Shown: one piece after another, positions 31,895-43,073 of the stretch
How positions within the stretch are numbered: position 1 is the stretch's first letter
How the letters are laid out: each line of letters begins with the position of its first letter
Assembly (NCBI GenBank): GCA_963813715.1
Contig: CAWFAK010000007.1
Span: 192,001-256,000, forward strand
Source: an uncultured Planctomycetaceae bacterium
GTDB lineage: Bacteria; Planctomycetota; Planctomycetia; Planctomycetales; Planctomycetaceae
Length of the DNA: 64,000 bases
Direction: 5' to 3'
The notes under the pieces: generated by a model
The model's input: the letters and a program-made list of their open reading frames with translations, nothing else
What the model was told of the DNA's origin: nothing
The model's database searches: none
Position numbers and translations under genes: made by a program

Positions 31895-32002
31895 GGCCGG
31901 TGGACGACCGTAATAGCGAACCTTCGAGGGCCTTGTTTGAGGCTGTAGATTGCGAATCCGCACGAAACCTGTGCGGATTCCCTCCGTTGAAAGGATCTCA
32001 TC

Positions 32003-32371
32003 ATGGCGGTTCAAACCTCGAACGAACTCATCCACAAGAAATGCTCCCCCTGCGAGGGCGGCGTGGCAGCGGTCCAGCCGGACGAGGCCAAGTCCCAGCT
32101 TGAAAAGCTCCCAGGTTGGCGGATCTCGCACGCCGGCAAGCGAATTCGCAAGGACTGGACCGTAAAGAACTTCATGGCCGGGTTGGATTTTTTCAAACGC
32201 GTCGGCCAACTCGCGGAGAGCGAAGACCATCATCCCGATCTGCACCTTGAAGGCTATCGCAACGTCTGGATCGAACTCTCGTCGCACGCAATCGGCGGAC
32301 TGTCGGAAAACGATTTCATCCTGGCTGCGAAGATCAACGACCTTTCCGTCGAGCTGCAGCCGGCCAAGTAA
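32003..32371 (+). CDS. phhB: Pterin-4a-carbinolamine dehydratase
   Basis: CSPCEGG, AESEDHHPDLHL, SHAIGGLSENDFILAAKI; AAGGA RBS. Confidence 0.93.
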   Translation: MAVQTSNELIHKKCSPCEGGVAAVQPDEAKSQLEKLPGWRISHAGKRIRKDWTVKNFMAGLDFFKRVGQLAESEDHHPDLHLEGYRNVWIELSSHAIGGLSENDFILAAKINDLSVELQPAK

Positions 32372-32528
32372 GCACTACCGCGAGCGGCCGGAGGCAGTTC
32401 TCCGCGGCGCGGGAGCGGACGGGTGAAGCTATGAGGAGCGGTAAGAGGTAGGCCGAGCCGGTTGGTGGTTGTGCTTGAACGTGGTAAACGGAGTTTGTTG
32501 CCAACCGTTTCCACAAAAGGACACCGCC

Positions 32529-33549
32529 ATGAAATTTGCCGGCTGCGACCTACACAAGCAGACTATCACGATTTGCGTCGTCGACCAATTGCGGCGGGTC
32601 TTGGAGCGTCGGACCGTGCGTTGTGGCGAAGAGCGGACCATCCTGGCATTCTTCGAAAGACTCGGGGAGTTCGAGGCTGTCGTGGAAGCGACCGCCAGCT
32701 ACGAATGGTTCGTGCGATTGATCGAGCCCGTGGCCCATCGCGTGTTGTTGGCCCACCCGAAGAAGCTGCGTGTGATTGCCGAGAGCACGCGTAAAAGCGA
32801 TCGGCTCGACGCGCAAATCCTCGCGGAGTTCCTGGCCTTGGACATGATTCCGACGTCTTACCGGGCGACTCCGCGGCAGCATGAGCATCGACGACTGGTG
32901 CGTCAGCGGGGCGGCGTTCAACGGCGATTGACCTCCGTCAAGAACCGTCTGCGCCGCATTCTCTGCGACTACAACGCGGATCGCCCCAGTCTGTTCACCG
33001 TGGACGGGTTGGCGTATCTCGCCCAAGTGCCTCTCTCGGGAGCGGATCGGTTCGCCGTGGATCAAATGGTCGAAGAGTTGCACTTCGGGCGGCGTCAGCT
33101 GCTGGCCGTCAACGCCCGGCTGAAGGAGTTCGCCGAGGCGGCGCCGCTTTGCGAGCAGGAAGGCGCGGACGCTGTTGCGGACGATCCCCGGAGTGGGCTT
33201 CGTGACCACCGAAGTTGTGCTGGCCGAGTTGGCAGACATTGATCGCTTCGGTTCGCAAAAGCGGGTCGTCGCTTACGCAGGGCTCTCACCGGGTCAACGC
33301 GAGAGTGCGGGCAAGAGTCGGGAGCTGCACCTGGAGAAGAACGGTTCGACGCTGCTGCGCTCGACGCTGGTGGAAGCCGCCTGGCGGCTGGTTCAGCACT
33401 CGTTACGTTGGCGTCGGATTTATGAACGATTGAAGTTGCGCGTGCGTGCCAAGAAGGCGATCGTCGCCGTGGCCCGCCGGTTGTTGTGCCTGATGACAGC
33501 GATCTTGAAGACGGGCCAACCCTACTCGCTCAGCCAGCAACCGACTTAA
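32529..33549 (+). CDS. IS110-family DEDD recombinase/transposase (one extra G near 33162)
   Basis: GCDLHK, VVEAT, KSDRLDA (DEDD), TIPGVG, YAGLSP..RESAGK (conserved Ser), AIVAVARRL. Deleting one G gives a 339-aa ORF. Confidence 0.95.
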
Positions 33550-33589
33550 ATCCCTGACCTTGGCAGGAGAGCACAAAACAAAACATCGA

Positions 33590-33800
33590 TCGAAAGCGCT
33601 GCGACGACCCACAGACGACCCCGCCCCCGGCCATGAAGGCGTTCCCTCAAAAGAGCGACCTTCGAAGGGTGAATGGGGCGTCTCTCGAAAGTCGGCTTCC
33701 TGGCGACATCGACGGACCTGTTCCAGACCGTTGGTGATCCCGAATAGATGGTTGAGCGTACCGCATCGCCCAGATCACCACTTCAAACGCAAAAACCAAC
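33590..33800 (+). ncRNA. Putative bridge RNA (seekRNA) of the IS1111-type element; ends approximate
   Basis: Stem-loops carry CCCCGGCCA and GAAGGGTG (target halves) and ATAGATG and CTTCA (donor-junction halves). Confidence 0.8.
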
Positions 33801-33824
33801 CCTTGACGCTACCCTTCTCATAGA

Positions 33825-33915
33825 TGGCCGGGGCGCTCCGCGTAGCGGAAGCCCCGGAACGCCGGCCTAGCCCACCACTTGCCTCCGAGCCTTCAGGGAC
33901 ATTCGCCCGCCGAAT
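33825..33915 (+). repeat. REP-like repeat, copy 1 (interrupted by the IS)
   Basis: About 90 bp, closely similar to 42937-43025 (TGGCCGGGG.GCTCCGCGTAGCGGAAGC.CCGGAACGCCGG...CCACTTGC.TCCGA). Confidence 0.85.
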
Positions 33916-34025
33916 CGGGCCGAGAGAGCTGGTGTGTCTGCGGCCTATTCAATTGAAGCGAAAGAGCTTTTTGGGTTTGCCTTCGTGGCGGCGCTGGTCA
34001 CGACCCTTTTCGATGTCGACACGAC

Positions 34026-35840
34026 CTAGTTCTTCGCCGCCTTCGCGCGAATGCAATACAGGTTGTCGACGCTGCGGAGGTAGATCGACCCATCGGCGAC
34101 GGCGGGCGAGGCCCAGAATTGCTCGCTCAGCTTGTTGGTGCTGAGCAATTTGAACTCCGGGCCCGCGTCGAGGACGTGCGTCGACCCCGCGTCGTCGAGG
34201 CAGAAAATCTTTCCCTCGGCGGCCCAGGGAGACGTCCAGAACGCGGCGGCCTCCGGAATGCGATGACGGTACAGCAGCTTGCCCGTCGCTTTGTCGTAAC
34301 AGGTCAAGAGGCCGCCGTTGTTCTTGAGAATGTAGACGTGACCGTTGTAGATCAGCGGTGACGCCTTTTCGGGACCGCCGCGCGACGTCGACCAGGCGAC
34401 CCCGGCGTTGGAGGTCTCGTTTTGTTTAAGCGTGAGGTCGCCCGACGCGCCGGCCTTCACCGCGTAGAGCCCGCCGCCCCCGCCGCCGTTCATGCCCATT
34501 CCCGGCTCCGAGCCGACGTAGAGCATCTCCGCGTCGCCAACCGGTGACGAGTAGCAACGGCCGCCCATCTCTAATTCCCAAAGCACTTTGCCCGTGGCCG
34601 GATCGTAGGAGCGGACCTTGTGGCCGCTGGTGACCAGCTCGGTGCGGACCTTGTTCTTCCACACGACGGGTGAGCAGTGGTTCGTGCGCTCGTCGCGGGA
34701 GACGCGCCACAGCTCCTCGCCCGTCTCGGCATTGAGAGCGACGAGGAACGACTTCTCCTCGTTGTCGATCTGCAGGTAGAGCCGCTCGCCGTCGAGCACA
34801 GGCGAGCTGGCGGGGCCTTGGCCCATCACCGTGGGAAACGATCCGAAGTCTTTCTTCCAAAGTTCCTTGCCGTCAAAGTCGTAGCAGTAGAGCCCGTGCA
34901 TGCCGAAATAGGCGAAGACGCGGCGGCCGTCGCTGACCGGCGTCTCGGTTGCGTAAGTATTGCTCTGTTGGATGGCGGTGCGTGGTTTTCCGTCGAGCGC
35001 GTGCTTGTCCCACAGGACTTTGCCCGTGTTGCGATCGAGGCAGACGACTTGCCAGTGATAGACGGCGTTGGGGATCCGTTCGCCCATGCCCCGGCCCATT
35101 CCACCGCCTCGGCCTCCGCGTCCGCCGCGGCGCCCGCCTCCGGGGCCTTCACGCAGCGCCTGCAACTGACCCTTCTGCTCCTGGTTCAGAATCCTTTCGA
35201 GCTTGCCGGTGGTGGTCTTCTGGAAGTCGTCGAGCTGCTTCTTCTGGGCGTCGGTCAGCTTCAGACGCTCGACGTCCGCCGCGGGCAGGACGCGTCCCGG
35301 CTCCGGCCGACGGAACCGAGGAGCCTCGTCTTCTTCCGGCGGCGCTTTGAGCGTCTTTTGTTGTTCTGGGGTGAGCAGCTTGGCGAGCTCGGCGTCGACT
35401 TCTTTTTGCAGGTCGTGGAGTTGCTTCTTCTGCGCGTCGGACGGCTCAAGCCGGTCCTCGAGAAACGGAGGCAAGAGCACGCCGGGCTGCGGGGGTCCGC
35501 CCGGACCGCCGCCGAATCCGCCGCGCCGGCCGCCGCCGCGACCGCCCGGGCCGCCCATACCGAACCCACGGGACGGCCGCGCCTGGTTCTCGGTGCTGGC
35601 GGTGGTCACGAAGACTTTGTCGCCGCACACAATGGGCGACGACCAGCCGAGCCCCGGGATTTTCGTTTTCCAGAGCACGTTGATGCTGGTCCCCCACTCG
35701 CTCGGGATAGTCGTGGCGGCCACGCCGTCGCTCTGCGGTCCACGAAACTGCGGCCAATCATCAGCCTGAAGCAAGGCCGCCGAAACGCCGACGACGAGCC
35801 ACGCGATTCCGATCGATTTACGGGTCGACTCGCCGATCAT
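34026..35840 (-). CDS. Secreted PQQ-like beta-propeller protein
   Basis: Signal peptide, DWPQFRGP, GWSSP, NTYATETP, SSPV repeats, FWASPAVADG. ATG at 35840 preferred. Confidence 0.9.
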   Translation of the reverse strand: MIGESTRKSIGIAWLVVGVSAALLQADDWPQFRGPQSDGVAATTIPSEWGTSINVLWKTKIPGLGWSSPIVCGDKVFVTTASTENQARPSRGFGMGGPGGRGGGRRGGFGGGPGGPPQPGVLLPPFLEDRLEPSDAQKKQLHDLQKEVDAELAKLLTPEQQKTLKAPPEEDEAPRFRRPEPGRVLPAADVERLKLTDAQKKQLDDFQKTTTGKLERILNQEQKGQLQALREGPGGGRRGGRGGRGGGMGRGMGERIPNAVYHWQVVCLDRNTGKVLWDKHALDGKPRTAIQQSNTYATETPVSDGRRVFAYFGMHGLYCYDFDGKELWKKDFGSFPTVMGQGPASSPVLDGERLYLQIDNEEKSFLVALNAETGEELWRVSRDERTNHCSPVVWKNKVRTELVTSGHKVRSYDPATGKVLWELEMGGRCYSSPVGDAEMLYVGSEPGMGMNGGGGGGLYAVKAGASGDLTLKQNETSNAGVAWSTSRGGPEKASPLIYNGHVYILKNNGGLLTCYDKATGKLLYRHRIPEAAAFWTSPWAAEGKIFCLDDAGSTHVLDAGPEFKLLSTNKLSEQFWASPAVADGSIYLRSVDNLYCIRAKAAKN

Positions 35841-36096
35841 GCGGCTCGGTCCTTTGCGAAGTGTGTTTGGAAAAGAAGTGCTCGCGAATACCTTGCCGGC
35901 GCCACAAGAGGGCGCCGAGCACCGGATATTACTGGAATCATGAGACCGCCGCAGCACGACGTCCGGCATCAAGTCCGCGAGCTTAATAGGAGATTAAGAC
36001 CGACATCGATTGTCCGAGATTGCCACTTCTTGGCCGCGAAGCTCGCCGTTGTGGCTGCCAATTATGGTTGGACGGTGTCCTACGAGACTTACGAGA

Positions 36097-42930: not shown

Positions 42931-43073
42931 GACGGGTGGCCGGGGAGCTCCGCGTAGCGGAAGCGCCGGAACGCCGGTTCAGCCCGCCACTTGCTTCCGA
43001 ACTGTCAGGACATTCCCGGCCGAACGAACTGACGGAGAAACGGGGGCTTCCGCGAAGCGGAGCGCCCCGCCAC
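42931..43073. repeat. REPIN-like inverted doublet; contains an empty IS target
   Basis: Left arm GTGGCCGGGGAGCTCCGCGTAGCGGAAGCGCCGG; right arm (43041-43073) reverse-complements to GTGGCGGGGCGCTCCGCTTCGCGGAAGCCCCCG. Confidence 0.85.

Follow-up and report, generated by a model that had tools for sequence, protein, structure and literature searches.

A probable IS1111-type guide RNA gene with target and donor modules in an insertion sequence of a Planctomycetaceae bacterium

When the interval at 33729-33826 of the window (the whole 64,000-nucleotide stretch of DNA that was analysed) was compared with related elements, it appeared to be the 3′ part of an IS1111-type guide RNA gene (a bridge RNA, or long seekRNA), followed by the right end of the insertion sequence. 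We place the probability of this reading at about 0.78. The RNA would span roughly 33596-33770 and would consist of two modules. The target module (33613-33683) would carry guides for a REP-like target, and the donor module would consist of a hairpin (33701-33743) flanked by two guides. In the proposed mechanism, the RNA would be made and would bind the DEDD recombinase; the donor guides would hold the excised circle at its junction (right end-TG-left end, RE-TG-LE), the target guides would hold the REP site, and the recombinase would exchange strands at TG. Circle formation would also complete a promoter only on joining of the ends, with TTGACG as the −35 box and the core G plus AAGCT as the −10 box at a spacing of 17 nt. 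This promoter would fire in the circle and direct expression of the transposase gene and, farther downstream, of the RNA. The element belongs to a type of system already described, here in a host lineage that is new for it. All features given below are on the forward strand except where noted.

The genome was searched with positions 32380-33880 as the query, which revealed eight full-length copies of 97-100% identity; the right-hand flank alone gave 22 further short matches. The boundaries are identical in all eight copies: ..GGGTG is followed by AAGCTATGAG at the left, and CTCATAGA is followed by TGGC.. at the right. Empty REP-like sites read cGGG-TG-GCCGGGGCGCTCCGC...GCGGAAGCCCCGG with a single TG, and there is no duplication beyond this shared core. 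From the shared boundaries and the single-TG empty sites, the element, an IS1111-type insertion sequence, therefore spans 1399 bp (32426-33824) with a core TG at each side (32424-32425 and 33825-33826), and this dinucleotide flanks both ends in 8/8 copies. The left end, AAGCTATGAG (32426-32435), is the right donor half (RD) and includes the subterminal inverted repeat CTATGAG (32429-32435). The right end, CTCATAGA (33817-33824), is the left donor half (LD), with the subterminal repeat CTCATAG at 33817-33823. Beyond the right core lies the right half of the palindromic target (GCCGGGGCGCTCCGC..GCGGAAGCCCCGG; 33827-33860). All eight copies sit in this same REP-like palindrome, at one position and in one orientation. 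The 12-nt empty insertion site is present in the genome as four exact and 158 one-mismatch copies. The palindrome family (GGGTGGCCGGGGCGCTCCGC..GCGGAAGCCCCGG) is also seen at 42937-42992 (locus L009) and at about 20 other places in the genome; its members are often paired and inverted, about 60-120 bp apart.

The mapped ends and the empty sites allow the circle junction to be predicted as RE-TG-LE. The junction given in the preliminary description follows from the ends common to the eight copies, and all of the motifs that it named are present where it had placed them. A search for the junction (20 nt of the right end, TG and 20 nt of the left end, with up to two mismatches) gave no match in the genome assembly, a type of sequence that is not expected to hold circles. 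A degenerate junction pattern run over all collected loci had no match other than the left end of L041, and this is not a junction. Second left-end-like motifs in L077, L113, L114, L087, L085 and L094 were set aside as chance matches, and the genome was free of orphan copies of the conserved RNA block described below. The guide segments and the −35 box show no variation among the eight genomic copies, and therefore these copies cannot test them.

The transposase gene of the IS110/IS1111 family (DEDD type) comprises positions 32529-33549. The window copy is broken by a one-nucleotide insertion near 33160-33162, and the gene is thus split between two open reading frames (32469-33242 and 33175-33549) that lie in different frames. 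Four of the eight copies encode an intact 339-aa protein, and the other four, the window copy included, share the identical insertion. The protein from one intact copy (P0001, 339 aa) matches PF01548 (1.8e-14) and PF02371 (5.7e-23). We used as the yardstick for the IS1111 group a DEDD_Tnp_IS110 N-terminal and a Transposase_20 C-terminal domain in a protein of 330-350 aa, together with subterminal inverted repeats of 7-17 bp that lie a few bases inside the ends. The 7-bp subterminal repeat CTATGAG/CTCATAG lies 3 and 1 nt from the ends. It extends imperfectly, and, as judged by eye, both ends change in step across the relatives. The non-coding region measures approximately 277 nt after the stop codon (33550-33826) and approximately 103 nt before the start codon (32426-32528). 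Assignment of the element to the IS1111 group of the IS110 family is supported, since the 3′ non-coding region, the subterminal repeat, the size and the target specificity fit the description of that group in PMC11187229. The shared insertion changes GAAGCG to GAAGGCG (33155-33165; also in copies L003, L004 and L006), and it may mark a non-autonomous lineage that spread with the help of intact copies, or it may reflect gene conversion. An inverted repeat, GTGGTAAAC..GTTTCCAC (32472-32528), is located just upstream of an AAGGA ribosome-binding site and is kept in L032, L033, L034 and L041; it may form a 5′-UTR hairpin that controls translation of the transposase.

Around 57 related elements with transposase identities of 31-75% were compared. 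A single-protein scan of species genomes yielded seven loci in Planctomycetaceae and relatives. Of 401 genomes of the phylum that were searched, 11 contained matches, among them multi-copy families of about 35% identity. An alignment of six proteins was then used to scan metagenomes, and the best 80 of 391 relatives (35-69% identity) were taken. A 22-nt block around the motif ATAGATG was identified, with up to six mismatches, in 61 of these best 80 metagenome loci; those that lacked it were mostly contigs ending before the block. We mapped the right end in 51 elements and both ends in 38. Six further right ends came from a pattern that did not require TTGAC. In L041, the true right end lies approximately 230 nt after the block. 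A set of 24 metagenome loci (L067, L070, L074, L078 and 20 others, called group B here) has approximately 110-150 nt extra after the donor block and before the right end; this extra stretch includes a conserved segment (GATCTCCCTCCGCCTCGGGCTCAAG.. and ..GGCTGAGATGGGCAGATCGACCGACGCCGACGGCG).

The consensus fold of the 51-sequence alignment (A3), obtained with RNAalifold, consists of a helix P1 that closes the target loop, a capping hairpin, and a hairpin P2 with a GG:CC base. Single-stranded segments flank each hairpin. Over the 51 sequences, the 24 consensus pairs are 89.8% paired, whereas shuffles reach 73.0%. Their covariation score is 0.469; shuffled alignments give 0.183 (0/500 reach 0.469) and slid-partner controls at most 0.158, with the proviso that shuffle tests overstate significance here because the compared sequences are related. 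The 3′ non-coding region (274 nt) folds no better than its shuffles (z = −0.56), and an Rfam scan of 32000-34200 with E-values up to 1 gave no match.

The target-binding domain comprises residues 33613-33683, and both P1 and its capping hairpin covary. P1 is formed by 33613-33621 and 33676-33683, and the capping hairpin occupies 33636-33662. The right target guide (RTG), CCCCGGCCA (33625-33633), lies before this hairpin and is the reverse complement of TGGCCGGGG. The left target guide (LTG), GGGTG (33667-33671), lies after it and equals the left flank plus the core. When the guides were compared with the flanks of their own elements, the RTG agreed at 229 of 510 positions (51 elements; shuffle mean 165.7) and the LTG at 219 of 280 (35 elements; shuffle mean 147.7), and none of 10000 shuffles reached either value. 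Some RTGs are offset by one base. IS1111 seekRNAs are encoded 3′ of tnp and carry the top-strand match 5′ of the bottom-strand match (PMC11187229). The target guides of the window have the top-strand match first, as published for those RNAs.

The hairpin P2 (33701-33743) lies between the two proposed donor guides. It starts with the anchor TGGCGAC, continues as a variable stem-loop and ends with GATCCCGA. In the RNAalifold model, G33702-03 pair with C33740-41, and 33707-33712 pair with 33731-33736. These two helices (numbers 4 and 5 of the consensus) are 100% and 83.9% paired, and all eight of their pairs are changed on both sides among the relatives.

On the 3′ side of P2, after CGA, lies the motif ATAGATG (33744-33750), within the conserved block GATCCCGAATAGATGGTTGAGC. 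This motif very probably serves as the left donor guide (LDG), for the left donor half and the core. ATAGATG is found four times on both strands of the window, where 1.29 occurrences are expected, and two of the four are inside the element. The conserved block contains an 8-mer whose last 7 nt reproduce the final 5 nt of the right end followed by TG; this holds for 50 of 51 elements, and the exception, L140, agrees at 6/7. Since the guide is identical to the right end and core, it would pair with the bottom strand. In 46 main-clade elements, ATAGATG accompanies a right end of ..CATAGA|TG. The guide is ATGGATG in L048, L050, L141, L143 and L142, where the right end reads ..CATGGA|TG, and ATGGGTG in L043, L046 and L047, where it reads ..TATGGG|TG. 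The guide and the right end thus form three haplotypes (ATAGA, ATGGA and ATGGG), which require at least two compensated changes. Because the left donor half is nearly invariant, this covariation involves two variable positions in three haplotypes. The proposal in the preliminary description that ATAGATG is the left donor guide agrees well with this identity and with the way the motif changes together with the right end. In a distant relative, L042, the motif is ATGGATG next to a right end of ATGGA|CG, so that CG replaces TG beside the right end. Its right target guide matches CG, and its two junctions have different cores.

The block is almost invariant, as scaffolds are, and one could argue that it is a protein-binding or folding scaffold whose identity to the right end is incidental or due to common descent, with the protein itself reading the subterminal repeats. 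The long subterminal repeats of IS1111 elements could indeed be protein sites. The seekRNA paper (PMC11187229) describes the domain that binds the IS ends as not known, and reports that for ISEc11 a short RNA with only the target match sufficed. However, the right end has two positions that change between clades, and the block changes there in the same way; the matches also take in the core TG, a dinucleotide that the inverted repeat does not include. A neighbouring hexamer also covaries with the other end of the element through several different base changes. We consider the scaffold explanation quite improbable.

That hexamer, GCTTCC (33695-33700), is located just 5′ of P2 and is 5/6 complementary to the top-strand sequence TGAAGC (core plus RD1-4). 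It is most likely the right donor guide (RDG). The RDG was counted by alignment columns, as the hexamer just 5′ of the conserved TGGCGAC, in the 38 elements with both ends mapped. The base opposite RD3 is complementary in 35/38 elements (shuffle mean 22.9) and that opposite RD2 in 34/38 (shuffle mean 27.1); none of 10000 shuffles reach either count. The changes are of several kinds. Left ends with AAAC are seen with (N)TTTCA, AAGC with (G/T)CTTCA (L102, L074 and L078), ATGC with GCATCA (L072), ACAC with GTGaaa (L064 and L130), ACTC with GAGaac (L032), and AACC with tGTTCc (L105). The fit has gaps. The hexamer of the window mismatches the first core base, and both core positions are complementary to the RDG in only 24/38 elements. 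The closest relative (L033, 75% identity) has GCTCTC, with only 2/6 complementary; the clade at 35% identity (L048, L050 and L143) has GTCTAN, with 3/6; and L104 does not fit the pattern. In L032, L064 and L130, which have C at RD2, the hexamer (GAGAAC, GTGAAA) pairs with RD2-4 and not with RD1 or the core, which suggests a shifted or shortened register. A right donor guide on the 5′ side of the target module was also tried and rejected: it reads AGTTTCA in L048 and L050, is not in L140, L141 or L143, and is absent in the window.

The preliminary description had arranged the donor loop differently. It was closed by a stem of TGGTGATC (33732-33739) and GATCACCA (33773-33780); ATAGATG served as its 5′ guide and CTTCA (33781-33785) as its 3′ guide, which is the order known from IS621. 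There is something to be said for this arrangement. All of its letters are present, the 8-bp stem can pair, and the left guides of IS621 are 5′ and its right guides 3′ (PMC11208160). CTTCA is the exact reverse complement of the core plus RD1-3, with both core bases included, whereas GCTTCC is not. The comparison with the relatives points the other way. CTTCA occurs 132 times in 128 kb (both strands), so that approximately 0.3 occurrences are expected by chance in a single-strand stretch of 277 nt, and its presence is uninformative by itself for this reason. The stretch after the block, in which it lies, cannot be aligned among relatives. Exact matches of at least 5 nt to an element's own core+RD reverse complement are found 24-41 nt 5′ of the block in 15/38 elements, against only 3/38 within 60 nt 3′ of the block, and these three are in non-homologous places. 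We therefore rejected CTTCA as a chance match. The proposed covariation of the donor guides with the element ends thus holds for ATAGATG and fails for CTTCA.

The stem does not do better as the closure of a donor loop, even though its two arms are complementary in the window. An equivalent is seen in only 3 of 51 elements, the window included, and its 5′ arm competes with the covarying P2, which uses 33731-33736 and has its GG:CC pairs directly beside the arm (33740-41). The guide order published for IS1111 RNAs is also the reverse of that in IS621 (PMC11187229). Taken with these observations, the IS621-like arrangement is very improbable. Because the hexamer 5′ of P2 covaries with the left-end sequence, the order of the donor guides appears to be reversed relative to IS621, and the left-then-right order that had been assumed does not apply here. 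With the RDG 5′ of P2 and the LDG 3′ of it, both modules would be ordered as right guide, hairpin, left guide.

A further helix, P0, may enclose the whole RNA. In the minimum free energy fold of 33590-33790, its putative 5′ strand (33596-33603) pairs with 33762-33769. For the 24 elements of group B, RNAalifold predicts a homologous helix (GACGUG/CACGUC). A long-range P0 that closes the donor domain and gives a three-way junction is the more likely architecture; for the window, we infer it from these models. The predicted junction agrees with the multi-loop donor sites remarked on for IS1111 orthologues in PMC11208160.

The right end carries the remaining conserved feature. TTGACG (33803-33808) faces the right end and lies 16 nt before the core TG, so that in the joined circle it would be 17 nt from GAAGCT. 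It is the candidate −35 box of the predicted circle-junction promoter, which would fire once the ends are joined; the spacing looked for in such promoters is 16-18 nt. In 48 of 51 elements, TTGACN stands before the core TG at a distance of exactly 16 nt (TTGACA in 37, TTGACC in five, TTGACG in three and TTGACT in three), and the remaining three have the box displaced by 1 or 3 nt; the count is in part circular because the first right-end pattern required TTGA[CT]. The six elements found without the TTGAC requirement all have TTGACA at the same distance, which repairs the circularity for these six only and brings the total to 54/57. No locus that was long enough was found to be without the box. 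The bases beside it are variable. The −10 hexamer GAAGCT, made of the G of the core and AAGCT of the left end, matches TATAAT at two of six positions, and that of most relatives, GAAACT, at three of six, on a σ70 yardstick rather than the rules of this phylum. Positions 1 and 4-8 of the left end are invariant in 38/38 elements, and positions 2-3 vary. The would-be −11A and −7T are accordingly invariant in 38/38 and the would-be −10 and −9 positions vary, which is weak evidence because these bases are also constrained as donor sequence. An extended −10 (TG-A-AACTAT with a 19-nt spacer) was set aside; its −11 base is the variable position 3 of the left end. We found no σ70-like promoter in the linear element. 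The outward direction of TTGACG, its 17-nt distance to GAAGCT on joining and the weakness of that −10 hexamer were all described correctly beforehand.

TTGACN could have been kept for another reason, such as a contact of the recombinase in the donor arm, a role as part of the 3′ tail of the RNA, or an outward promoter that serves host genes in the flank. The poor −10 (2/6 in the window and 3/6, GAAACT, in most relatives) would fit such a role, and circles of ISPpu9 form no junction promoter (PMC12288879). Nevertheless, the hexamer equals the σ70 −35 consensus in 37/51 elements and lies at a fixed 17-nt distance from a hexamer whose −11A and −7T are retained in 38/38. The bases directly beside the box vary. 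An outward promoter would have no conserved −10, because the flanks beyond the end differ between elements. Junction promoters with the −35 in the right end and the −10 in the left end are reported for ISEc11, ISEc21, IS621 and ISPpu10 (PMC11187229, PMC12288879). We regard these other roles as unlikely, and favour the −35 box of a junction promoter. The candidate resembles the Pjunc of those four elements in its outward −35 in the right end and in a −10 that the left end would supply once circular; it differs from them in its weak −10 and in being predicted here from sequence.

The element is closest in its features to ISEc11, ISPa11 and ISKpn4 (Siddiquee et al. 2024, PMC11187229). Like these, it has a DEDD transposase (339 aa), a 3′ non-coding region and subterminal repeats, and it uses one position and orientation in a specific target, which is REP-like here. 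The sizes also fit: the target module of approximately 71 nt compares with the short seekRNA of 70-100 nt, and the region bounded by the putative P0, approximately 174 nt, compares with the long form of 145-170 nt, to which that report assigns no role. The differences are the host from the Planctomycetota, the different palindrome and the core TG. In its account of the long form, PMC11187229 gives no donor-binding role, whereas the extra part of the RNA covaries here with the element ends, as judged by sequence comparison alone.

Comparison with the IS621 bridge RNA (Durrant et al. 2024, PMC11208160) shows target and donor modules in one RNA in both cases, and a donor that is the joined RE-core-LE of the circle, which is predicted here. 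Unlike IS621, the RNA would be encoded at the right end after tnp instead of the left end, and the guides of both modules would be in right-then-left order instead of left-then-right. The donor guides would flank a hairpin, probably inside a three-way junction, instead of lying in a simple internal loop. The element also has long subterminal repeats, and its core is TG instead of CT.

RNA-guided recombinases of the IS110/IS1111 family are under development as genome-editing tools. For the IS1111 branch, experiments have established that the seekRNA recognises the target, but donor recognition has only been suggested by manual inspection of a few elements. The element and its approximately 57 relatives provide comparative evidence that the RNA reads both donor halves, and they point to the positions of the guides and to an order reversed with respect to IS621. 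This order may already be shown for ISPa11, ISAzs32 or ISCARN28 in the supplements of PMC11208160 and PMC11187229. We tentatively propose, at slightly less than even odds, that the 3′ domain of the long seekRNA is a true donor module unlike that of IS621, in which right-then-left guides flank a hairpin in a three-way junction and the RDG has a flexible register. If so, IS1111 elements would be fully bispecific bridge systems, and the donor end could be reprogrammed by changing 6-7 nt on either side of a single hairpin. When IS1111-type elements are annotated, the place to look for the right donor guide is the 5′ side of the hairpin before the left donor guide, rather than its 3′ side.

For the organism itself, the element is ordinary: a multi-copy insertion sequence in REP-like repeats, half of whose copies have the same frameshift. 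Its position in the window is intergenic, and neither neighbouring gene is interrupted. One neighbour (32003-32371) encodes a pterin-4a-carbinolamine dehydratase (PF01329). The other (34026-35972) lies on the minus strand and encodes a PQQ-like β-propeller protein of 648 aa. The latter carries glycine/arginine-rich and LTXXQ-like inserts.
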